The translations under genes were made by a program, and so were the position numbers. Below, one piece after another: positions 7,667 through 25,513 of a DNA stretch of 62,153 bases. The stretch's first letter is position 1, and each line of letters opens with the position of its first letter. This DNA comes from an uncultured Methanospirillum sp. (GTDB lineage: Archaea; Halobacteriota; Methanomicrobia; Methanomicrobiales; Methanospirillaceae), in NCBI GenBank assembly GCA_964637135.1, contig CAZWTX010000004.1, positions 62,001 through 124,153 of the forward strand, read 5' to 3'. The notes below the pieces were generated by a model, which searched no databases, had not been told where the DNA came from, and saw only the letters and a list, made by a program, of their open reading frames with translations.

Positions 7667-8044
7667 TTATTCCCCTTCTCTCTCTTCGCATATTCCCTGA
7701 CATTCTCCGGGATCAGATCCTGCCGGGATGAGATCCCCCTGGTCGAGGAGCATCAGGTTCATGATCCCGCTGCAGGAATTACAGAGATAATATCGTCCAT
7801 TCCAGCAGTTTTCACAGGCCCACCTCCCACAGATGACGCACTGGCGATGATCCGAGAGTCTTCCCGGCCGGTGACAGAGATCACAGATGTACCGGGAGAA
7901 CGACTCGCCGTCATGTGATGGTGGCTCATTCTGTTTTCGAACCAGCCTGATCTCCCGTTTCAGCCGGGAATAGATGTCTCTCTCTCCGGAATTACTTTTT
8001 TCTGGTTTCCAGGGTGGATTCAAGTGCATTAAGCCTTGCCTCAA
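7667..8044 (-). CDS. Cys-rich zinc-finger protein (4x CxxC), last gene of the unknown operon; start uncertain
   Basis: CDLC...CVIC...CENC...CNSC; overlaps the upstream gene. Confidence 0.7.
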   Translation of the reverse strand: MRQGLMHLNPPWKPEKSNSGERDIYSRLKREIRLVRKQNEPPSHDGESFSRYICDLCHRPGRLSDHRQCVICGRWACENCWNGRYYLCNSCSGIMNLMLLDQGDLIPAGSDPGECQGICEEREGE

Positions 8045-8339
8045 GATCGTTCAGGGTATTGGTTATCCTGGATTCTGACGCATGCATGGTTCGTATCTGT
8101 TCCTCGTCGCGTTCCAGAACTGCATTCTTTGACTCGGTAAACCGTTTCATTCGGGGACGCTGGACGAGATCCCATTCCTCGATCAGGCGTTCGAACCGCC
8201 GGTCGAGATACTCGTCGATACGGCTTTCCACCGGTCGCCGAAGAGAGATCCGTCGTGATGATCCCTGGAAAAACCAGTAAATCAGGAATGCAGCGACCAG
8301 GACAACGAGGATGATCAGGAGAATCTCGATGAGGGTCAT
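7992..8339 (-). CDS. Membrane-anchored coiled-coil protein
   Basis: N-terminal hydrophobic helix, IDEYLDRRFERLIEEWDLV, heptad C-terminus; ATGA overlap. Confidence 0.85.
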   Translation of the reverse strand: MTLIEILLIILVVLVAAFLIYWFFQGSSRRISLRRPVESRIDEYLDRRFERLIEEWDLVQRPRMKRFTESKNAVLERDEEQIRTMHASESRITNTLNDLEARLNALESTLETRKK

Positions 8340-8557
8340 GGCTGTCTCTCCTTCAGTTTCCTGACCCGCTCTTCCATGTCAGTAATCCTTTTATTCGTCA
8401 TCTGTTCGAATGACTTCAACTCAGCGACGTCAGCCTGAACGGTCTTGAACCTGGCAATCAGATCCTTGAAATCACCTTTCGTGGAGAGTTGCCAGTCATC
8501 GATAATGCTCCCCATCCGGCGATCGAGATAAGCACTCATATACGAGTTTAATTTCAT
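8336..8557 (-). CDS. Small coiled-coil protein
   Basis: MSAYLDRRMGSIIDDWQLS motif plus heptads; ATGA overlaps on both sides. Confidence 0.85.
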   Translation of the reverse strand: MKLNSYMSAYLDRRMGSIIDDWQLSTKGDFKDLIARFKTVQADVAELKSFEQMTNKRITDMEERVRKLKERQP

Positions 8558-8859
8558 TTCTTATCCTCCAGGTCACTGACCGCGTCGGATAATCCCTTGA
8601 TCCGCTGTTCAATGCTCGAACGTTCCGCAACGAGACGTCCTACTTCATATGAGAGGTAATCGATCTTCCGGGATATGAGATCAAGATCGGTCCCGGTAAC
8701 GAGTCCCCACTCTTCCATGATCAGTTCGAGATTGTTCTCAAAGTAGGAATCGATCGTTCTGTCAAAGGTAGGAACGCTTTTCACAAATTCCTCACCGGTT
8801 CTGGAAATGTTTTGCCAGACCTGTTCTGCTTGTGATGATACCTGATACATCCCAATCAC
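8554..8859 (-). CDS. Small coiled-coil protein
   Basis: IDSYFENNLELIMEEWGLV motif plus heptads; 4-nt overlaps with neighbours. Confidence 0.85.
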   Translation of the reverse strand: MIGMYQVSSQAEQVWQNISRTGEEFVKSVPTFDRTIDSYFENNLELIMEEWGLVTGTDLDLISRKIDYLSYEVGRLVAERSSIEQRIKGLSDAVSDLEDKK

Positions 8860-9236
8860 ACCAGTTTCTTCTCTTCTTCGGCGATCTTCTCGATCATCAG
8901 ATCCAGTTTCTCTCGTTTTACGGTATTTTCAAGCCGGCGAATCCTTCCCTCAACCATCTTCTGTTTCATGAAGATGTCAGATTCAACCTTCGCATTTGTC
9001 TCTTCGATCTCGCTCAGAGCACCCAGTTGATCAGGAGATAACCGGAGAGACGGGTCCCTCATGGAACCCTGTTCCGATTTTAGCACGCTTAGCTTCTCCC
9101 GTTCTAGTTCTATTTCCAGTTTGCGGGAATTTGTCTTCATCAGCCGGATTTCGCGGACCATGAGAAGGAGGATCAGGAGCACCCCGAAAAGGATGGCTAC
9201 TCCGATGAGCCCGTCCTGGGTAAAGGTAATCTCCAT
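8856..9236 (-). CDS. Membrane-anchored coiled-coil protein
   Basis: GLIGVAILFGVLLILLLMV TM helix followed by charged heptad segments. Confidence 0.85.
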   Translation of the reverse strand: MEITFTQDGLIGVAILFGVLLILLLMVREIRLMKTNSRKLEIELEREKLSVLKSEQGSMRDPSLRLSPDQLGALSEIEETNAKVESDIFMKQKMVEGRIRRLENTVKREKLDLMIEKIAEEEKKLV

Positions 9237-9237
9237 C

Positions 9238-10053
9238 CTAACCCTCGAGTACTTCTGCCATGTACACCAGGACGTTTTCAGGACCGCTCAGGTAGATAAG
9301 ATCACCTTCGGCTAAAACCTGGGTATCTGAAAGGGTGAGGGCATCACCTCTCTGGACTGCGATGATATCAGCCTCCGGGGGGATCGTGATATCAGAAAGC
9401 ATTCTCCCTGCAGCGGAATGTACCGGAATCACTGCAAGGGGTGCCGCCGCTTCCATGAGGAGTCCGCGGACTTTCTCTGCATCACCAGGCATAAGGCTTT
9501 TCAGCGCAGATTCAACGTCAGCGTTAAACCGGTTGATCGGGAGAACTCCCTGGATTTTTCTCATTCCGGCCTGTGCTGCTTCTCCGATTTTCTCCCCGAT
9601 TGGGGCGACTTCGCCGGCTACTTTCTCTCCGATTTCACGGGCTTTTTCACTGATTTTATCTGCAGTCTCAACAGTTCCTTCTTTGATCTTTTCTGCAGTT
9701 TCTGAGAGCCGCTTTCCTGTCTCTGCTGCTCCGGTCTGTATTTTCTCAGCCGTCTCCCCGGCACTCTTTCTTATCTGTTCGTCGAGGGGTACTTTCCGTT
9801 TTACCGTGACCGATGCTCCTTCTTCAATTCCAAGCCGTCTGATGTCCTCGGCACTGATCCGGATCCTGCCTTCTTCTACCAGGGTATCGGCAAAGAGAGT
9901 GAAGGAATGACTTTTTCCTTCTGCCGTGGTGACCACAATCTCTGATTGATCCACAACTGAAAGATCATCAAGAAGGCGTGCATTTACCCGTACACGCCCG
10001 GATCCTGGCATGGCTCTTTTGGCCACCTGCAGAGTAACGTGATCCATATTCAC
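9238..10053 (-). CDS. Protein with CDC48_N-like double-psi beta-barrel, amphipathic 11-mer repeats and TrkA-C (RCK_C)-like domain
   Basis: N-term GRVRVN..LLDDL....GRIRIS....RRLGIEEG..V.V; middle repeats IRKSAGETAEK/IQTGAAETGKR/IKEGTVETADK/ISEKAREIGEK; C-term AGRMLSDITIP...IIAVQRG...VLAEGDLIYLSG. Confidence 0.75.
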   Translation of the reverse strand: MNMDHVTLQVAKRAMPGSGRVRVNARLLDDLSVVDQSEIVVTTAEGKSHSFTLFADTLVEEGRIRISAEDIRRLGIEEGASVTVKRKVPLDEQIRKSAGETAEKIQTGAAETGKRLSETAEKIKEGTVETADKISEKAREIGEKVAGEVAPIGEKIGEAAQAGMRKIQGVLPINRFNADVESALKSLMPGDAEKVRGLLMEAAAPLAVIPVHSAAGRMLSDITIPPEADIIAVQRGDALTLSDTQVLAEGDLIYLSGPENVLVYMAEVLEG

Positions 10054-10432
10054 ATACCTGGCTTCTATACGTTAATAGGTTTCTAACTGATGCGAATTGG
10101 ATAAAAACCTATCAGCCGGGGAAATTTATGTGAAGAGTCAGGACTGATGAAATACCCGGTATGTTGATAAAATCACCCGTTGGGAGTTCCTGTATCTGAA
10201 AAGAAAGAAATCCGATGGTGAATGATTCCGTGGTATCCGGTTTTTTTTGATGGAGGGTTCCACAATCCATCTGTTCGGAAAAGAAAGACAATCATTCTCC
10301 TGTCCTGTGGCGGAATACTGTCCGGTTATCTCACCTGGCATGATGTCATGAAATTTTTCAGAACCTCAAATCAGAACTCCTTTACCTTCCTGAGGCAGAT
10401 TTTTGTTTGCCCTTCCGCTTGTAGGAGGTCAA

Positions 10433-11044
10433 ATGGGAATCGAGAAGTTACTTGAAGGAAATCAATGCTTCGTTGAAAACGAATACGCAGAAAATATTGA
10501 ATATTACACGGCCCTCCTGAAGGGACAGAATCCTCATGTGATGATGATCGGGTGTTGTGACTCACGGGTCGCTCCTGAGATCACCTGTCATGCAAAGCCA
10601 GGGGAGATTTTTGTTCACCGGAACATCGGGAACATCGTTCCTCCCGGAGACTGGAACGTCGGTACGTTCCTGGAATACGGGATCGAACATCTCAGGATTA
10701 ATACCCTGGTTGTATGCGGACATGAGGAATGCGGAGCGATGAAAGCGCTTTCTCACCGGCATTGCGGTGAGGATTCCCTTATCCCTGGCTGGCTTCGCCA
10801 TGCACAGCCTGCCCTGTCTGCGGCTTGTGCAAATGGGCCGTGTCCGGAAGATCCTGATGCCAAACGGGAATGGCAGACGGAGCTGGAGATCGAGAATGTC
10901 AGGCTCCAGTTAAAACATCTTCGGACGTATAAATGTGTCCGCGAAGCAGAAAACGCTGGGAAACTGCGGGTAATCGGATTGTATTACCGGATGTCAACGG
11001 CGAAACTTGAGGTTATCGATCCGGGTATACCTCTTAAACCCTGA
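10433..11044 (+). CDS. Beta-class carbonic anhydrase
   Basis: GCCDSRV, GEIFVHRNIGN, GHEECGA zinc motifs; GGAGG upstream of ATG 10433. Confidence 0.93.
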   Translation: MGIEKLLEGNQCFVENEYAENIEYYTALLKGQNPHVMMIGCCDSRVAPEITCHAKPGEIFVHRNIGNIVPPGDWNVGTFLEYGIEHLRINTLVVCGHEECGAMKALSHRHCGEDSLIPGWLRHAQPALSAACANGPCPEDPDAKREWQTELEIENVRLQLKHLRTYKCVREAENAGKLRVIGLYYRMSTAKLEVIDPGIPLKP

Positions 11045-11129: not shown

Positions 11130-11546
11130 TTAGATAGCCCCTGCGGGGGATGAAAACGGGTTTTTCTGCTCGCTGACCATCTCATCAACGAATCCTACCG
11201 TCTTGATAATGAGGTTGTGCTGTCTTGCCTCGCTGATCAGGTTCTTTGATTCCTTGGTTACTCCGTTTGAAAGAACGAGGAGATGCGTGGCGTATTCGGT
11301 CATATGCGCGTCACGGACAAGTCCTGCAGCGTTCAGATCATCCTGCCAATTTGGTTCAAACTCTTTGTAGGTGATCTGATGGTCGAGTGCATACTGTTTG
11401 GCGATGAGGTCAACACCAGTTGAACCCCCGGTTATGATCTCGTCTACACCATTCAGTTCTGAAATATACTGCTCAATTTCTGATGAAACCGTATTGAATT
11501 TACGGCAGCCACGAGGGCCTGAAACGATTAGTTTTTTCATGCCCAT
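11130..11546 (-). CDS. SLOG-superfamily (DUF2493/YspA-like) protein
   Basis: LIVSGPR, IITGGSTGVD..A..YA, F.PNW.....AG..R...M pattern. Confidence 0.65.
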   Translation of the reverse strand: MGMKKLIVSGPRGCRKFNTVSSEIEQYISELNGVDEIITGGSTGVDLIAKQYALDHQITYKEFEPNWQDDLNAAGLVRDAHMTEYATHLLVLSNGVTKESKNLISEARQHNLIIKTVGFVDEMVSEQKNPFSSPAGAI

Positions 11547-11737: not shown

Positions 11738-12250
11738 TCATCTTCCGGCTTTTTCCATGAGTGCGAGGATTCCCCGGAGTATTTCAAGAGGTTTTGGTGG
11801 ATTTCCCAAAATCCTGAGGTCAACCGGGATGATAGAATCAACCCCTCCGCGTACTGCATAGGTCCCGGCATATATTCCTCCTGTACAGGCATCGTCGCCT
11901 ATTGCGATGACATATTTCGGATCCGGGGTTGCATCATATGTCTTTTGGAGGGCGAGTTCCATTCCCCTTGTCACAACCCCGGTTACTGCGAGAATATCTG
12001 CATGCCGTGGAGATGCGACAAAGGAGATTCCGAATCTTTCGATATCATAATATGGACCGGAGAGGTTTGAGAGTTCAATCTCTGCAGCATTGTCACTTCC
12101 GCAATCGACCTCCCGGATCATGATCGAACGCCCGAATGCCCGGTGAATCTCACGTTTAAGGGATTCTCCCGTCTTTTCGAGCTCTTCGTCAGTGAAGCAC
12201 ACCGGTTCGGTCACCGGTTTTCTGATGAGTGATGACAGAATTGATACCAT
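11738..12250 (-). CDS. Ehr/HyfI-like small subunit (NuoB family) lacking the four Fe-S cysteines
   Basis: YDIERFGISFVASPRHAD signature; GSDNAA, GDDA and GNPP where the family has GSCNGC, GxCA and GCPP. Confidence 0.88.
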   Translation of the reverse strand: MVSILSSLIRKPVTEPVCFTDEELEKTGESLKREIHRAFGRSIMIREVDCGSDNAAEIELSNLSGPYYDIERFGISFVASPRHADILAVTGVVTRGMELALQKTYDATPDPKYVIAIGDDACTGGIYAGTYAVRGGVDSIIPVDLRILGNPPKPLEILRGILALMEKAGR

Positions 12251-12253
12251 GAA

Positions 12254-13780
12254 TCAGAGATCCCTCCCCGTATACGAGAGATTCATACTTTTATTAATCA
12301 CCGGGAAATCAGGGACAATGTTTCCCATGACTGCGTGTTCGATAGCCTGCCAGTTACAAAAGGACGCGGTCCGTACTTTATAGCGTGAAATCCTGCCGTT
12401 ACTGATAAGGAGCCAGTGAATATTCATCCCACGGGGTGATTCAATAAGGGAGAGAGCATAGCCGTCAGGGATGGTGACATCGGTCGATACCGGCCCATCA
12501 GGAAGTTCACTGATAAGATCGCTGATGAACCGGAGGGAGGCTGCCACCTCTTCGCTCTTGACAAGGAATCGGGCAAGTACATCTCCCTTCGTCTCCCTGA
12601 TACCGTCCGGCTGGCGGAAAAGGTACACCCCGTATGGATGGTCAGTCCTCGTATCGGTATATGATCCTGATGCCCGGGCGACCGGACCGGAAAGGGCAAG
12701 TGGCCTGATGAGGTCAGGACGGATAATCCCGGTCGTTGCAAACCGGTCATGAATGGAGGGAACGGTATATAACCAGCGGAACAGACCGGGCAATTCTGTT
12801 CCGACCTCTTCGACCGTCTTTTTCAGATGAACCAGGATGGCATCGTCGATTTCCCGGGTAATTCCCCCTATGCTGATGATCCCTTTCAGGAATCGTGAAC
12901 CACTTATCGCATCGCATTCCCGCATCAGGCGTTCCCTGAGCATGAGAAGCCGTGAGGCCCCCGTAGAAAAGGCCACATCTGTTGCCATTCCGGCGAGGTC
13001 AGAAAGGAGGGCATATGATCGTTCGAGTTCCAGAATAATCCCTCGGAGTGCGGTTGCCCGCTTTGGGATCCCTGCACCAGCGATCTGTTCCGCTGCCATG
13101 GCATATCCACAGGCATTCGAGGCCGATTCGTCCCCTGCGATGGATTCGGCAACGATGAGGCCCGTTTCCGGTGTCATCCCTTTAGCAAGTTTCTCAATCC
13201 CGCGGTGGAGGTATCCGAGCCGGATCTCAAGGTTCAGAATCTCCTCACCGATTACACTAAACCGGAAATGTCCCGGTTCAATGATACCGGCATGGACCGG
13301 TCCGACCGGGATCTGGTACACGCTGCTTCCTGAGACTTCCCTGAAAGGGTACGGGACGGGATTCTGTTCTGGGATGACCGGTCCGCTCGGGGTATCCTTC
13401 TTCAGCGGATGAAATGATGCAGGATACCATTCATGAAGAAAGAGTCTTCTTGTATCAAAGGCTCCGGTAAAACGAACCCCGAATCCGTCTGTTATCTCCC
13501 GTTCGAAGAGTGATGCAACCGGGAACCAGGGTGTAACAGACTCCGGGCTGTTCGTACTGCATACCAGGGTGAGGAGTTCTGCCTGTCCGTCTTCAAAGAG
13601 GTAAACAAGAGAGAACGGTTCATCATGGAACTCCTCAACCCCGAAGATAGCGATGAGATCAGCCCCGGATGTGGCTACCCGTGCGATCTCTTTGGTGAAG
13701 TCGCCTGGAGGAATCCTGAAATAGCGGGCTGTATGGTCAGTCTTCAGGTGCCATTGTTCTGGATAGATGACTGGTTGCAT
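12254..13780 (-). CDS. Ehr/HyfG-like large subunit (fused NuoC-NuoD) without NiFe-binding CxxC motifs
   Basis: GPVHAGIIEPGHFRF, GYLHRGIEK, ESPRG; ESIAGDES and NKSMNLSY replace RxCxxC and DPCxxC. Confidence 0.9.
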   Translation of the reverse strand: MQPVIYPEQWHLKTDHTARYFRIPPGDFTKEIARVATSGADLIAIFGVEEFHDEPFSLVYLFEDGQAELLTLVCSTNSPESVTPWFPVASLFEREITDGFGVRFTGAFDTRRLFLHEWYPASFHPLKKDTPSGPVIPEQNPVPYPFREVSGSSVYQIPVGPVHAGIIEPGHFRFSVIGEEILNLEIRLGYLHRGIEKLAKGMTPETGLIVAESIAGDESASNACGYAMAAEQIAGAGIPKRATALRGIILELERSYALLSDLAGMATDVAFSTGASRLLMLRERLMRECDAISGSRFLKGIISIGGITREIDDAILVHLKKTVEEVGTELPGLFRWLYTVPSIHDRFATTGIIRPDLIRPLALSGPVARASGSYTDTRTDHPYGVYLFRQPDGIRETKGDVLARFLVKSEEVAASLRFISDLISELPDGPVSTDVTIPDGYALSLIESPRGMNIHWLLISNGRISRYKVRTASFCNWQAIEHAVMGNIVPDFPVINKSMNLSYTGRDL

Positions 13781-13783
13781 GGG

Positions 13784-15253
13784 TCACACTCCCCCCATAC
13801 CGATATCTGCCACAGCAGCGGTGAGAAACGCTTCCTCTCCCGGTATTATCCATAATCCTGCGATGATGGATGCCGCAATGAGGATAATTATCGGGATTTT
13901 CATGGTAACCGGTGGTACATACTGTTTCGGGCGTCCTCCGGAACCGTACCTGAGGGATATCAGCCTGATAAAATACCGCAGGAGTGCAGATGCGGCGATT
14001 GCAAAAAATATCAGGATGATGAGGGCCAGTATCATGGATTTCTGCCCGGCTGCGATCAGGATACCTATCTTTGAGATAAACAGGGGAAACCCGGGCGTTC
14101 CGATGATGGCAATCATCCCGATTCCGAGTGTTCTCGTGGCAAAGGGCTGCATGGAGATGAGATCTCTCGGCTTTTCGTCATCTCCGGGTGTTTCTGGGTG
14201 GTACTGGCGGTTCAGGATCCCTGCTGAAAGAAAGAGCCCTGACTTGACGAGTGAATGGCCTATCATGTGGAAGAGTGTCCAGAAGATAGCAAGCGGTGTC
14301 ATCAGGCCGATTCCGAGGAGAATGAATCCCATGTTTTCGACAGAGGAGAATGCAATAAGCCTTTTTGTTCCGGTCTGGCAGAGCATGGACAGGGCTGCAA
14401 TAGACATGGAGAGAACACCGAAGATAATCAGGATCGTACCTGACTGGAAACTGACAGTGGAATGAGAGACAATTCCCGTCAGCCTGAGAATTCCATATAT
14501 ACCGATGTTCAGGATAACTCCGGACAGAACTGCACTAACCGCAGAAGGAGCCTTTGCATGAGCCTCCGGAAGCCAGGTATGCAGGGGAACAATTCCTGAT
14601 TTCGCTGCAAATCCAATGAAAAAGAAACCGAAGGCTATCCAGAGCATTCCGCTGTCCACCGACGGAGCGATGGCAAGAAGGGTCTTCCAGTCAAGGCTGA
14701 TGGCCCCGGTTGACTGTCTGACCAGTTCAAAGAGAAAAATCACCCCGATAAAGGAGAAAAGCATGGAGGATGATGAAATAAAAATATATTTCAGGGATGC
14801 GTCGATATTTTCCCGAACTGCCAGGACGGCAACAAGTAATGCAGATATTGCTGTTGTCAGTTCTGCACAGATCCAGAACTGGGCAATATTCGGTGAATAA
14901 AAAGCGAGAGTGGTTACGATGAGCAGGATAGAGAAACCTGCATAGAATATCCGCAGGCTTCTCCTGTCGAGTTCTCCATCCCTTACAAGGCCGTCGATGT
15001 ATCCGACTGCGAATACACTGGCACAGGTGAAGACCATCCCGGTGATGAACACCATCAGGACACTTGCATGATCAACCAGGAAGATACCTGATGTATCCTG
15101 CCAGTTTTCAGGAGTCAGTACAAGGATAAGCGTGATAAGAAGACTCCCTGAAGAATGGATAACTCCCAGAATACTGAGGGCGAGATGCTTCTTCTGGAAG
15201 ACCTGGAGAACCAGGATGATCACGGTCAGGATGAGGTAGGCGAGCATAATCAT
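13784..15253 (-). CDS. HyfF-like antiporter-type membrane subunit
   Basis: KSGIVPLHTWLPEAHAKAPSAVSAVLSG, KRLIAFSSVENMG. Confidence 0.9.
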   Translation of the reverse strand: MIMLAYLILTVIILVLQVFQKKHLALSILGVIHSSGSLLITLILVLTPENWQDTSGIFLVDHASVLMVFITGMVFTCASVFAVGYIDGLVRDGELDRRSLRIFYAGFSILLIVTTLAFYSPNIAQFWICAELTTAISALLVAVLAVRENIDASLKYIFISSSSMLFSFIGVIFLFELVRQSTGAISLDWKTLLAIAPSVDSGMLWIAFGFFFIGFAAKSGIVPLHTWLPEAHAKAPSAVSAVLSGVILNIGIYGILRLTGIVSHSTVSFQSGTILIIFGVLSMSIAALSMLCQTGTKRLIAFSSVENMGFILLGIGLMTPLAIFWTLFHMIGHSLVKSGLFLSAGILNRQYHPETPGDDEKPRDLISMQPFATRTLGIGMIAIIGTPGFPLFISKIGILIAAGQKSMILALIILIFFAIAASALLRYFIRLISLRYGSGGRPKQYVPPVTMKIPIIILIAASIIAGLWIIPGEEAFLTAAVADIGMGGV

Positions 15254-15942
15254 GCCTCTTCCTCCTCCCTGGACCAGAGATGAAACTCTGACAGACGACT
15301 GGTATACTCTTCAATACTTGAATCCATGCCTACGGTCAGGATCGTGGTAAGAAGAATGAGGATGATCAGGTCAACCATGATGATAAATTCAACGATAAAG
15401 GGAAGTTCGGTGGCAAACAGACCAAACAGAAGCACCCCATTCTCCATCGAGAGATAACTTGTCACCTTCGTGATCGCAAGTTTCCGGGAAAATATCCCGA
15501 TAAGCCCCATGAGCATGAGGGAAACCCCGGCAACACTCCCAAGGAAAAACAGGCTGTTCTCTGTATACATGGTGTTCAGGATCTTCGAGAAGCAGAGGTA
15601 CACCATGATAATGAGCAGTATACTCACAGCGAGCGCTCCTGCCGGTTTTAGGCCGTAAAAGCCCGTGTCCTGTTCGATTCTGATCTTTTTCTGAATATGC
15701 AGGATAAAAGCCGGGATACCGATCACCTTGGAGACCAGGGTCAACAATGCGACAAAGGCGATCAGAACCTGCTCATCAAGCCAGGCCACCATCAGAGCGA
15801 TGATCACGAGAATGAATGACTGCATCGAGTATGTTCTGACCAGGGCCGGCAGGTTTCGTGACGTCAGAAGAAAGGCTGCTGATATCAGGATGAGAACGAG
15901 GGCAATCCTCAGGCCTGCAACGATAATTTCCGTTCCGATCAC
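15250..15942 (-). CDS. HyfE-like membrane subunit
   Basis: About 7 TM helices, YLSMENG motif; position in the operon. Confidence 0.85.
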   Translation of the reverse strand: MIGTEIIVAGLRIALVLILISAAFLLTSRNLPALVRTYSMQSFILVIIALMVAWLDEQVLIAFVALLTLVSKVIGIPAFILHIQKKIRIEQDTGFYGLKPAGALAVSILLIIMVYLCFSKILNTMYTENSLFFLGSVAGVSLMLMGLIGIFSRKLAITKVTSYLSMENGVLLFGLFATELPFIVEFIIMVDLIILILLTTILTVGMDSSIEEYTSRLSEFHLWSREEEEA

Positions 15943-16877
15943 AGGATCACCTCTATAAAGATCGTCAGCATCGAGAGGAAAAATGCGAGCATAAAGAGAT
16001 TCGGAAGACTAAAAAACCTCATTTTCGCAAAAGACGATTCACTTAACCCGATTATCACCGAAAGGAGACTCCCCTTCATGACAAACGCTGTTATGCCGAT
16101 AAGTATCGCAGGAATGGTACATTCAAGGGCAATACCGAGGGGTATGAGCAGGTTTATCAGAAGCGCCATCAGCAGGGTCTGTTTGACGGCATGGGAGAGT
16201 TCAAAAAGGGCAAGGTTTCTTCCGGAGGTATCAAGAAGCATTCCCTCGTGAATCATGGTCAGTTCCAGGTGGGTCTCCGGATTATCCACCGGAATTCTTC
16301 CGGTCTCGATGATGATAAGGATGAAGAGTGAGACCGAGAGGAGAATGATGGTTGGATTGAATGTCCCTACGGCCCCGGCGGTATTGGCAAACATCTCATG
16401 GATCGAGAGCGTTCCGGTCACAAAGGCCATAGCCGCAAAGACGATGATCGTCGTCGGCTCAATGACTGCAGAGAGACTCATCTCCCGTGAACTGCCCATT
16501 CCGCCAAACGTGCTGCCGGTATCAAGCCCGAGGAGAGCGAGGAGAAACCGTGTCATTGCCAGGAGGTACAGGAAGATAATGATATTTCCGCCGATTCCGT
16601 CGTTAGGGATCCAGAAAACCGGAACAAAAAGCGATGCAACCATCAGAATCGCCAGTGTTGCATTGGGAGCAATCCGTGAAATCGGGCTTGCATACTCTGA
16701 GTAAATGACTTCTTTCCTCAGCAGTTTTGCGATCTGCCAGTATCCCTGGAGGAGGGGGGGGCCATACCGTCCCTGTGCCCGGGCTTTTACTTTCTTCACG
16801 ATGGTCATGTACAGCGGTGCTCCGAGCAGGATGAAACCCAGGTTGATCAATCCGAAGAGGATCGGTTCGAAATTCAT
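15939..16877 (-). CDS. HyfC/NuoH-like membrane subunit
   Basis: QGRYGPP, FGGMGSSRE, ETGRIPVDNPETHLELTMIHEGM; ATG at 16877 overlaps the upstream TGA. Confidence 0.9.
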   Translation of the reverse strand: MNFEPILFGLINLGFILLGAPLYMTIVKKVKARAQGRYGPPLLQGYWQIAKLLRKEVIYSEYASPISRIAPNATLAILMVASLFVPVFWIPNDGIGGNIIIFLYLLAMTRFLLALLGLDTGSTFGGMGSSREMSLSAVIEPTTIIVFAAMAFVTGTLSIHEMFANTAGAVGTFNPTIILLSVSLFILIIIETGRIPVDNPETHLELTMIHEGMLLDTSGRNLALFELSHAVKQTLLMALLINLLIPLGIALECTIPAILIGITAFVMKGSLLSVIIGLSESSFAKMRFFSLPNLFMLAFFLSMLTIFIEVIL

Positions 16878-18802
16878 ACGAATCCTCCGATGACCAGGAT
16901 CATCACGATAACCATGATAAAGACATAGAGGAGATACCGATCCGTGCTCCCGGTATGTATGCCGTTCACAAGGTTTGCATATCGCATGACCCATGAGGCT
17001 GCCGGAAGGTACAGGTACTCCTCGAAGAACTTCATGAGGTGTAGGTGTGCTTCACCTGCCCTGAAGAAACATCCAGAACTATCAAAAAAATCTTTTTTCA
17101 GGGAAATCCGGGTCCGGTATACCGGGGTGAAGATCTTCACTACCGGCTGGGAATATCCTGATCCGGTGTATTCCATCCGGCTGTCAGGGGCATACATCCC
17201 ACAGTCCCAGGTGGGGGCGATTCTTGTCTCCCGTGATGCAGTCAGGTATACTGTAGCGACAACAGCCACGAAGGCCAAAATGAGAAGAACCGATACCTGG
17301 AAGAGATCGGGAAGGAATCCAGAATATCCAAAAAAATCCAGGATCTGTGAGGAAAACACTCCTGAAAGGATACAACAGCCGGCAAGAACAGCCGGGCCGG
17401 CGATCATGGTGATGGGGACCTCTGATGCTTTTTTTGCCCGGGTAGAACGGGGAAGTGCAAGAAATGTGACTCCGAATGCTTTTACAAAACAGGCTGCGGT
17501 AATAGCCCCGGTCAGGCCGAAGAGTGAGAGGCTGATGACCATAAGAACCTGCATAAGCGGAGCTGATTGCTGAAGAGCGAGGAATAATGACTGATATATG
17601 AGCAGTTCACCGGCAAAACCGTTCAGGGGAGGGAATGCAGATATTGCAAATACTCCCACGAGGAACAGCCCACCAGTCATCGGCATTCTGACCAGGATGC
17701 CCCCGAGTTCATCGATATTTCGTGTTCCAGCAGCCTGGACCACTGAACCGGCAGTGAGGAAGAGCAGTCCTTTGAAGAGGCCATGGCTGAATGCATGAAA
17801 TACCGCCCCGATCAATGCCATGGTTCCTATAGCAGGCAGTCCTGTTCCGGAAAGAACCACAAACAGGCCCATCCCGATGAGAATCACGCCAGTATTGTCT
17901 ATTGAACTATATGCAAGCAACCCTTTGAGATCTCTCTCCTTCAGGGCATACATCACCCCGAGTGTTGCAGTCAGGCAGCCGAAAAAGAGGATGATCAGTC
18001 CCCATGATGTCTCCGGAAGAAAAAAGCCTGTTATCGCCCTGAAAAGGATGTAAAGGGCAGTATTGAGCATCATTCCGGACATCAGGGCCGAAACCATCGA
18101 TGGAGCTGCCGGGTGTGCATATGGCAGCCATTTATGAAATGGTATGACCCCGGCCTTGATTGCCACTCCGAGGAAGAGAAAAATAAAAGCCCCCCATGCC
18201 AGCAGGGTGGTCCCCGGAATCCCGGACGGATACACGAATGATCCCGTCAGAAGGTACATGGCAATAACTGAAGAGAAGATGCATACCGTTGAGAGCTGGG
18301 TCATCGCGAAATAAAAAAAGGCTGCGTATCGGGTTTTTTCTTCTTCATATTCTGTAAGGACGAGGAAGAATGAACTGATTGCCATGATTTCCCAGCTGGC
18401 AAGAAAAAGGATGGTAGACTGCGACAGTATCACCAGTAGCATTCCTGCCAGGAATACCGGGATTGCGGCAGGAAGGATATACGGCTGTTTCTCCGGATTC
18501 ATTCTCATGATGTATCCGGGGCTGTACAGGGATATGGCAATCGTGAGTATCCCGAGAAGCAGAATAAAGACCTCTGATAACCGGTCTGCACCGAGGATTA
18601 GCGGGAACTGGGTGGTGAGGTTCATTACGGCAATCCCGGTGCTCTCTCCCGTGTACAACCGGATGGCTGCCCAGACCGAGATAACCAGACCGGCCAGACC
18701 GGTCAGAATAAACGGCTGGAATATTCTTGTTCCCCGTTTTTCCAATGCAACAAGGGCTGCAGCGAAAAAAAGGATCAAACTTATTATAATTGGATCGGTC
18801 AT
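16874..18802 (-). CDS. HyfB-like antiporter-type membrane subunit
   Basis: WEIMAISSFFLV, KAGVIPFHKWLPYAHPAAPS, PPLNGFAGE, WDCG...RMEYT. Confidence 0.9.
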   Translation of the reverse strand: MTDPIIISLILFFAAALVALEKRGTRIFQPFILTGLAGLVISVWAAIRLYTGESTGIAVMNLTTQFPLILGADRLSEVFILLLGILTIAISLYSPGYIMRMNPEKQPYILPAAIPVFLAGMLLVILSQSTILFLASWEIMAISSFFLVLTEYEEEKTRYAAFFYFAMTQLSTVCIFSSVIAMYLLTGSFVYPSGIPGTTLLAWGAFIFLFLGVAIKAGVIPFHKWLPYAHPAAPSMVSALMSGMMLNTALYILFRAITGFFLPETSWGLIILFFGCLTATLGVMYALKERDLKGLLAYSSIDNTGVILIGMGLFVVLSGTGLPAIGTMALIGAVFHAFSHGLFKGLLFLTAGSVVQAAGTRNIDELGGILVRMPMTGGLFLVGVFAISAFPPLNGFAGELLIYQSLFLALQQSAPLMQVLMVISLSLFGLTGAITAACFVKAFGVTFLALPRSTRAKKASEVPITMIAGPAVLAGCCILSGVFSSQILDFFGYSGFLPDLFQVSVLLILAFVAVVATVYLTASRETRIAPTWDCGMYAPDSRMEYTGSGYSQPVVKIFTPVYRTRISLKKDFFDSSGCFFRAGEAHLHLMKFFEEYLYLPAASWVMRYANLVNGIHTGSTDRYLLYVFIMVIVMILVIGGFV

Positions 18803-24640: not shown

Positions 24641-25513
24641 TTACTCGAGTGCTTCAATCTCTTTCTTGAAGGCGATCCAGTAGATTAAACCAACAAAGAG
24701 CAGTCCGCCGACGATGTTGCCAATGGTGACGATAATAATGTTATTCGTCCACATTGTAACCCAGTTCAGGGTCGCCAGTTTTTCTGCTGTTATCGTTGCC
24801 ACCTGGTCTGCATTCAGGTATCCCGCGGTCATGATCCCCGCAGGGATGAAGTACATGTTTGCGACACAGTGTTCAAACCCGGATGAGACGAAAGCCATGA
24901 TCGGGAACCAGATTCCGAAAAATTTGCCAATCAGGTCATCCGCACAGATACCCAGGAGAATTGCAAGGTTTACAAGCCAGTTACAGCCAATTCCCTTGAG
25001 GAATGCAGACCACATGCCTGCGGCACCAACATAACTGACCTTTCCGATCGCAATTTTGACGGCAGTTATCCCGAAGGCATTTACCGTCGCAGCACCAGCT
25101 GCATTAAAAGCAACAAACGGACCGTTTGCCATGATATAGGCATAGAATACCGAGCCGATGATATTCCCTATATAAACCCATATCCAGAGATTCAGGACAC
25201 TGCCCCAGCTGACCTTGTGAATAAAGGCGGCAAGGGGTGCCAGCATGGCGTCACCGGTAAAGAGTTCCGCACCGGTCAGTACGGTGATAATAAGTCCGAC
25301 AGGGAAAACAGATCCCAGAATGAGTCTGCCAAAGCCGTCACCAAGGGCATCTGCAACCCCGGTAGAACAGACGGTGGCGAGGGCACCTCCCATGGCGATA
25401 TAAGCTCCGGACATAAAGCCACGAAGGACCATGTTCCACCATTCTAATCCTGTCTTATACTTTCCTGCACCAGCGCCTTTGGCGATAATTTGTACGGGTG
25501 GATGAAATACCAT
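24641..25513 (-). CDS. fdhC: Formate/nitrite transporter (FNT) FdhC
   Basis: GAELFTG, GIGCNWLVNLA, GFEHCVANMYF, GNIVGG. Confidence 0.93.
   Translation of the reverse strand: MVFHPPVQIIAKGAGAGKYKTGLEWWNMVLRGFMSGAYIAMGGALATVCSTGVADALGDGFGRLILGSVFPVGLIITVLTGAELFTGDAMLAPLAAFIHKVSWGSVLNLWIWVYIGNIIGSVFYAYIMANGPFVAFNAAGAATVNAFGITAVKIAIGKVSYVGAAGMWSAFLKGIGCNWLVNLAILLGICADDLIGKFFGIWFPIMAFVSSGFEHCVANMYFIPAGIMTAGYLNADQVATITAEKLATLNWVTMWTNNIIIVTIGNIVGGLLFVGLIYWIAFKKEIEALE

Follow-up and report, generated by a model that had tools for sequence, protein, structure and literature searches.

The closest described systems to the operon examined here are the Ehr complexes of Methanospirillum hungatei (ehrABCDLS, Mhun_1817-1822; PMC4704411) and Geobacter sulfurreducens (GSU0739-45; PMC7894505), which have the same six-gene set and lack the NiFe CxxC motifs. 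The M. hungatei complex is listed as a hydrogenase likely reducing ferredoxin, and its genes lie beside fdh and formate transporter genes, as they do here (PMC4704411). Ehr large subunits without cysteines have been described from the Candidate Phyla Radiation (PMC7304191), and the function of Ehr is elsewhere given as unknown (PMC10284858, PMC10432482). The operon reported here lies on the minus strand of a 62,153-nucleotide stretch of contig CAZWTX010000004.1 from an uncultured Methanospirillum sp., hereafter called the window. It encodes an Ehr membrane complex whose large and small subunits lack all eight canonical metal-binding cysteines. Whereas the literature covered treats Ehr as a redox enzyme or describes a loss in the large subunit only, the cluster ligands of the small subunit and the NuoI wire are also gone in the window. 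Neither a cysteine-free Ehr small subunit nor a link between Ehr and inorganic carbon was found in the literature covered (including PMC4758237), and two Ehr-defining papers outside this coverage may note the missing cysteines. The Ehr family itself is known; priority for the cluster-less form is uncertain.

An Ehr operon without canonical metal ligands

The operon consists of six open reading frames (ORFs) running from 18802 to 11738. All are intact, and three 4-nt overlaps and two 3-nt gaps join them, which agrees with the tight coupling claimed in an earlier note made from this DNA alone.

16874..18802, minus strand: EhrA, HyfB-like antiporter-like subunit, 642 aa; PF00361; PRK08667, 789 bits; nearest solved protein HycC (7z0s_C)
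15939..16877, minus strand: HyfC/NuoH-like subunit, 312 aa from an ATG overlapping the upstream stop; PF00146; HycD (7z0s_D), E 1e-27
15250..15942, minus strand: HyfE-like membrane subunit, 230 aa; PRK11492, E 2e-14, below the curated cut-off
13784..15253, minus strand: HyfF-like antiporter-like subunit, 489 aa; PF00361; PRK08676, over the cut-off; matches to MbhH and MrpD
12254..13780, minus strand: EhrL, NuoC+NuoD fusion, HycE-like large subunit without NiFe ligands, 508 aa; PF00329 and PF00346; HycE, E 2e-67
11738..12250, minus strand: EhrS, NuoB/HycG-like small subunit with the four [4Fe-4S] cysteines replaced, 170 aa

Alignment of the small subunit to Escherichia coli HycG and Pyrococcus MbhJ placed D53, A56, D120 and N150 at the four [4Fe-4S] cysteine positions, and alignment of the large subunit to HycE placed A215/E218 and S502/G505 at the four NiFe cysteine positions. 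No CxxC motif was found in any of the six proteins. The earlier note had claimed both losses, and the first replaced motif was located where it had been placed, bases 12080-12110 of the minus strand encoding VDCGSDNAAE. It was also right that a HyfH/NuoI ferredoxin gene is missing: the ORF list and Pfam revealed neither such a gene nor a fused ferredoxin domain in the operon, and only a degenerate N-terminal stub is present. The operon thus has neither the two Ni-Fe-binding CxxC motifs nor the NuoI/HyfH subunit with two [4Fe-4S] clusters that mark group 4 [NiFe] hydrogenases. The tandem CC of NuoB that holds cluster N2 in complex I and the four conserved small-subunit [4Fe-4S] cysteines of Hyq-type Ehr (PMC3357923) are likewise absent.

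Membership in Ehr is indicated by the presence of the HyfB/C/E/F-like, large and small subunits in a single operon and by a tree in which the small subunit groups with Ehr small subunits, outside the Mbh, Ech and Eha proteins of its own genome (support 96). The genes for these three NuoB-family proteins, in Mbh-, Ech- and Eha-like operons, have normal cysteines. The nearest named relatives belong to Methanospirillum, and the cluster-less motif is also present in named proteins of M. stamsii (P0089) and M. lacunae (L014). Neither clustering of neighbours at 31 loci nor a Pfam scan of 142 neighbour ORFs around cluster-less loci (141 of 169 candidates plus one) revealed a seventh conserved subunit or a redox partner. 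Sequence and fold searches with the large and small subunits found no solved Ehr structure.

The small-subunit gene is covered by contigs of four other studies, in which no difference at the ligand codons and no indel is listed; run X2 spans all four ligand codons in one contig, and the others apply to the codons that they cover. Among the 120 best homologs (58-71% identical, query included), all carry D53, while A, T or P stands at position 56, D or E at position 120, and N (119) or D at position 150. C122, the Cys of 'DAC', is present in 120/120. C50, the Cys of 'DCGS', was ruled out as a ligand, being found in only 30/120 (position 50: T69/C30/A15/S6). In the large subunit, Arg213 (the R of the RxCGxC motif), which we take from complex I to be the Arg that precedes the first NiFe motif and adjoins the cluster, is R in 41 of 43 operons with four small-subunit cysteines (four-Cys operons) and in none of 28 cluster-less operons; no R occurs among the four residues listed at this position for the 120 homologs. 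The cluster-less clade fixes E212 and E218 where four-Cys operons keep Arg213, and Patescibacteria-type forms retain the Arg213 equivalent. The conserved HyqG-type cysteines near 266 and 495 (cf. PMC3357923) are not conserved in the cluster-less clade.

Of 80 loci from GTDB, 30 carry the cluster-less motif, 48 carry four cysteines and two carry another cysteine-poor motif. The 30 cluster-less loci and the window form one branch (31 of 81 sequences; Shimodaira-Hasegawa approximate likelihood-ratio test [SH-aLRT] 99) in a first small-subunit tree, a quick search with the ligand columns left in. The Cys-less clade among NuoB-family small subunits that the earlier note had envisaged is thus real. 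Its 30 loci belong to methanogens, Bathyarchaeota, Thermoplasmata, Woesearchaeota, Altiarchaeota, Chloroflexota, Moduliflexota and Margulisbacteria. Within the class Methanomicrobia the operon occurs in 56 of 201 genomes, and all 52 inspected Methanomicrobiales loci, of which L015 and L135 are one place, are cysteine-free. In the family of locus L010, 16 of 61 genomes have a match; of the 15 loci fetched, nine are cysteine-free, and the remaining six are of the four-Cys type, with a NuoI-like protein encoded by its own gene.

For the small subunit, the ratio of nonsynonymous to synonymous substitution (dN/dS, Nei-Gojobori) was 0.024-0.207 among the cluster-less pairs with dS < 2 (7 of 12) and 0.04-0.08 in three four-Cys control pairs. 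For all six genes it was 0.02-0.25 in every unsaturated pair, and the small subunit was the most constrained gene in several pairs. Between the window and its two nearest loci synonymous sites are near saturation (pS 0.68-0.76), and the reliable values are those of other pairs in the clade. Sequencing error was ruled out by the same letters in independent runs and the clade-wide motif. Strain-specific decay was ruled out by the intact frames, clade-wide invariance and dN/dS far below 1; the earlier note had regarded strain-specific substitution under relaxed selection as fatal to its proposal. The ligand loss is neither error nor decay but a conserved trait of the clade, and the window operon is a real, conserved variant of the known Ehr family, itself of unassigned function.

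Repeated loss of the cluster and the NuoI wire

Ehr small subunits were represented at 50% identity by 150 sequences. Four cysteines are present in 93, at most one ligand Cys in 21 with all four positions aligned (one of them a doubtful fragment), and 36 are partial or have two or three ligand cysteines. Two or three Asp/Glu residues occupy the four ligand positions in 14 of the 21. A single origin of the cysteine-poor forms was rejected by the approximately unbiased (AU) test (p-AU 0.023, 6 changes) on a tree with the ligand columns removed (72 rows, 138 columns; 32 Cys-poor rows and a selected 40 of the 93 four-Cys representatives). Cluster loss therefore happened more than once in Ehr. The independent losses use differing residue sets, several without Cys at position 122.

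NuoI exists in several states across Ehr: as a separate gene (six loci), fused to the small subunit in long forms (also in the supplement of PMC6349859), and as an N-terminal stub in short four-Cys forms. The stub with which the short four-Cys small subunits open scored a median of 22.9 bits (46 sequences). In the cluster-less clade it is degenerate, with a median of 1.7 bits versus −2.9 for shuffled sequences and 73/120 above the 95th percentile of the shuffles. A hidden Markov model of the N-terminus of this clade found no NuoI proteins in the genome, and the reverse test is the weak signal just given. The electron wire was taken apart stepwise, more than once. Three small subunits (P0214, P0230 and P0150) are without the NuoB cluster ligands but keep a fused ferredoxin domain. 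In relatives of L010 with small genomes (L159-L164), four-Cys Ehr is accompanied by a separate NuoI-like gene of 112-117 aa and, downstream, a universal-stress-like gene.

The cofactor-free state appears to be under selection, given that it is invariant across the clade, that dN/dS is far below 1, that Arg213 was lost with it and that independent losses recurred. To this extent the earlier proposal of selection for a non-redox function stands. Its alternative, a different metal site built from Asp/Asn and the neighbouring cysteines, fails for C50 and is left with C122.

Retained membrane arm, gene neighbourhood and predicted function

In both Ehr classes, four-Cys and cluster-less, conservation of the charged membrane-arm residues reaches 90% or more, in keeping with the charged motifs that the earlier note had seen in the antiporter-like subunits. 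These residues are E138, K216, H230, H336, H340, K344 and E399 in the HyfB-like subunit; E131, K218, H333 and K337 in the HyfF-like subunit; E132, E140, E191, D198, E205, E211 and E226 in the NuoH-like subunit; and E167, E185 and D191 in the HyfE-like subunit. Their assignment to helices follows the alignments and, in part, what is known of such membrane arms. K234 and K395 of the HyfF-like subunit are typical of the cluster-less clade. Both classes also conserve C438, C477 and C534 of the HyfB-like subunit, three positions at which the aligned E. coli HycC has cysteines as well.

In the large subunit, H163, E168, H171, E212, D217, E218, R450, S473, H482, N496, K497, N500 and D507 are invariant in 120/120 homologs. 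Those of the old NiFe cavity (E168, D217, R450, S473, N496, K497, N500 and D507) are common to four-Cys Ehr and the Patescibacteria forms, and D217, N496, K497 and N500 differ from HycE; E218 is a further polar residue of this cavity. Because the cavity residues are invariant and shared across Ehr forms, they argue for a putative substrate site common to all Ehr, which would need no cluster. The model of the small subunit has a NuoB fold (predicted local distance difference test [pLDDT] 91.3; root-mean-square deviation 1.9 Å to MbhJ), and that of the large subunit resembles HycE (pLDDT 86.8; TM 0.86). Residues 149-175 of the large subunit, which correspond to the complex I loop in contact with the membrane arm, are disordered in the single-chain model.

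The operon sits between fdhC-fdhA-fdhB and a beta-carbonic anhydrase (beta-CA) gene, the sole PF00484 match of the genome.

10403..11044, plus strand: beta-CA; PF00484, E 2.5e-46; convergent, 694 bp downstream of the operon
11130..11546, minus strand: SLOG (YspA-like) protein between operon and beta-CA; PF10686
19482..22707, minus strand: F420-dependent formate dehydrogenase fdhA-fdhB; TIGR01591 over the cut-off, FrhB_FdhB domains; ends 680 bp upstream of the operon
24641..25513, minus strand: formate/nitrite transporter, FdhC-like; PF01226, E 9e-74

Of the 52 inspected loci, 18 have a beta-CA gene no more than 1.3 kb from the operon, and coordinates show the same spacing in four more genomes, giving 22 of the 56 Methanomicrobia genomes with the operon; this is a lower bound, about ten contigs ending within 1 kb. 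Four genus groups from two families show the adjacency, in five arrangements, in one of which the gene is 19 bp from the small-subunit stop. We estimate the probability of such adjacency by chance at about 0.2% per genome, kin not being independent. The operon is present in 10 of 20 class genomes without beta-CA versus 46 of 181 with it, counts that include kin and incomplete bins and were not weighed. The SLOG gene travels with beta-CA in seven close loci. Genes for fdh flank the operon here and in six other loci, in two genus groups only. Among the neighbours of the 48 four-Cys loci (Pfam scan of 135 ORFs, 132 of 190 candidates plus three), SulP was found in 15, DUF2490 in six, and DabA-DabB and RuBisCO in one each. 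In the phylum of L065, where 8 of 301 genomes have a match and six of seven fetched loci are cysteine-poor, one of the six has a divergent beta-CA-like gene directly upstream of the operon (L144:13837-14427). Its product has CxDxR and HxxC motifs and Atlas structure matches to Pro_CA_2; it has no Pfam match.

The complex probably works as a non-redox, proton-coupled machine without electron transfer, as judged from the conservation described above. If so, inorganic carbon has about an even chance of being its substrate. Tentatively, we propose that it would couple the interconversion of CO2 and bicarbonate to the movement of protons and would serve to balance carbon and pH in connection with formate use. 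No cluster would be bound; the carboxylates D53 and D120 may replace the net −2 charge that a cluster with cysteine ligands carries, and the Asp/Glu residues in 14 of the 21 Cys-poor forms may likewise mimic its −2/−3 charge. Acid-base chemistry would take place in the former NiFe cavity, with complex-I-type coupling to the membrane arm kept. The step that consumes or releases a proton would be HCO3−/CO2 interconversion, either driven by a proton gradient, as in DAB, or generating one. DAB1 provides a precedent for a cofactor-free, NuoL-coupled CO2 hydratase (PMC13684180), and Geobacter Ehr increases on formate, its role never having been investigated (PMC7894505). It is doubtful that Ehr as a whole constitutes a third type of membrane-energised carbonic anhydrase, one in which the empty NiFe cavity would interconvert CO2 and bicarbonate in concert with a full complex-I-type pumping arm, the cluster being vestigial family-wide and dropped several times.

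Several points weigh against inorganic carbon chemistry. The large subunit has no recognisable zinc motif, H163/E168/H171 are inherited from HycE, E218, C475 and H482 are not kept in Patescibacteria-type forms, and the invariant C122 could ligate a metal. No carbonic anhydrase, SulP or DabA gene was found beside 21 scanned cluster-less loci outside Methanomicrobiales, about half of them with short flanks, or beside the nine cysteine-free loci in the family of L010, and four of five tested genomes have no PF00484 match at all. The Methanomicrobiales are related to one another, and their carbonic anhydrase genes may be no more than part of a formate-use neighbourhood; the loci with SulP neighbours are mostly of one order, Methylococcales. 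Deletion of Azorhizobium hyq, of the four-Cys type, slowed growth only diazotrophically at 5% CO2, which was read as H2 recycling (PMC2650096).

Other features were observed near ehr operons. In a methanotroph (L050:1-16361), SulP-SulP-ehr-dabA-dabB-DUF2490 form one co-directional block. ATP synthase beta and epsilon genes lie just upstream of a cysteine-poor operon (L148:7014-8826). A GNAT acetyltransferase gene, possibly a regulator, abuts the first ehr gene in 21 of the 52 loci (e.g., L097:4313-5161), sometimes overlapping it, in five genus groups; it is absent in the window. Some 5 kb downstream of the window operon there is a second fdhAB pair, and the last of a block of small genes at 7667-10053, syntenic in close relatives, encodes a CDC48-N-like/TrkA_C protein that carries a helical repeat insert.

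Alternative explanations and comparison with known systems

It is unlikely that the complex is instead an Mrp-like secondary transporter that uses ion exchange to balance pH or cations and whose large and small subunits form a structural or regulatory cap without catalysis. The two antiporter-like subunits match MrpA/MrpD, metal ligands are absent, and no neighbour is common to all lineages; the ATP synthase genes that one cluster-poor locus follows and the GNAT gene that may regulate the operon would also suit such a transporter. However, family and Pfam scans found no MrpB/C/E/F/G-type subunits among the six genes, these subunits being the sodium module of Mrp. In addition, D217, N496, K497 and N500 are Ehr-specific and invariant in the old active-site cavity, and the constraint on the small subunit in several pairs exceeds what a passive cap needs.

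A non-redox pump powered by another small-molecule reaction in the cavity, such as formate/formic acid handling, decarboxylation or hydrolysis, has a low probability. The conservation that favours CO2/bicarbonate chemistry favours it equally, as do the flanking fdhAB/fdhC genes at the seven loci, a formate/nitrite transporter near L005, an acetate-transporter family gene near L009, and the increase of Geobacter Ehr on formate (PMC7894505). The fdh link is, however, limited to two genus groups, and the operon is not accompanied by any gene for a candidate enzyme.

A redox role, with D53, D120, N150 and C122 holding a non-canonical Fe-S cluster or metal and with formate dehydrogenase or ferredoxin giving electrons, is comparably improbable. 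An association of formate dehydrogenase with Ehr and a likely reduction of ferredoxin by Ehr have been put forward (PMC6349859 and PMC4704411, respectively). The adjoining fdhAB, the invariance of C122, the carboxylates at positions 53 and 120 in 120/120 homologs, the NuoE/NuoF-like genes downstream of L027 and the ubiA/ubiE-family genes upstream of L025 fit such a role. Ligation of a [4Fe-4S] cluster by a single Asp is known. However, a [4Fe-4S] site that has no more than one Cys is not known to us, and position 56 (A/T/P) cannot ligate. Arg213 and the NuoI wire are lost, independent losses have different residue sets, several without Cys at 122, and P0214 and P0230 keep the ferredoxin domain yet lose the NuoB ligands. 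A decaying hydrogenase remnant or an artefact, to which the patchy presence (56/201 class genomes) and the 57-73% identity of the window proteins to their nearest relatives might point, has a negligible probability, being refuted by six intact frames, dN/dS of 0.02-0.25 for every gene in every unsaturated pair, and the same letters in independent runs.

Ehr, to which no function has been assigned since its naming, appears in metabolic maps of methanogens as a hydrogenase that reduces ferredoxin (PMC4704411). Because a widespread, strongly conserved form has no canonical metal ligand, reading Ehr as a ferredoxin-reducing hydrogenase is removed for about a quarter of the searched Methanomicrobia genomes and for many other anaerobes. 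As a natural, maturation-free system of six genes that is suited to expression in laboratory E. coli, the operon allows a test of whether the coupling arm of complex I can run without electron transfer. If Ehr were a third kind of membrane-energised carbonic anhydrase, this coupling machine would be shown to run on proton chemistry alone.

The Hyq 'endo-hydrogenase' of Azorhizobium caulinodans shares the subunit set and order of the window complex, and its HyqG lacks both CxxC motifs (PMC2650096, PMC3357923). HyqI keeps the four cluster cysteines, however, and HyqG has three conserved cysteines; the window clade keeps neither set. The closest solved relatives, for four subunits by sequence and for both peripheral subunits by fold, are E. 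coli formate hydrogenlyase HycCDEG (PDB 7z0s) and Pyrococcus MBH (6cfw), which contain NiFe and Fe-S centres as well as a NuoI-like subunit, whereas the window complex lacks the canonical ligands of these centres and that subunit. The Mrp Na+/H+ antiporter (PDB 7qru, 6z16) likewise has two antiporter-like subunits with conserved Glu, Lys and His, but the window operon has NuoH-, NuoB- and NuoCD-like subunits in place of MrpB/C/E/F/G. The vectorial carbonic anhydrases DAB1 and DAB2 may share a principle with the window complex, a cofactor-poor NuoL-type proton channel combined with non-redox chemistry (PMC13684180). A Pfam scan of the six window proteins found no DabA (PF10070) domain, and, in contrast to DAB with its beta-CA fold, the candidate catalytic subunit here has the fold of a hydrogenase.

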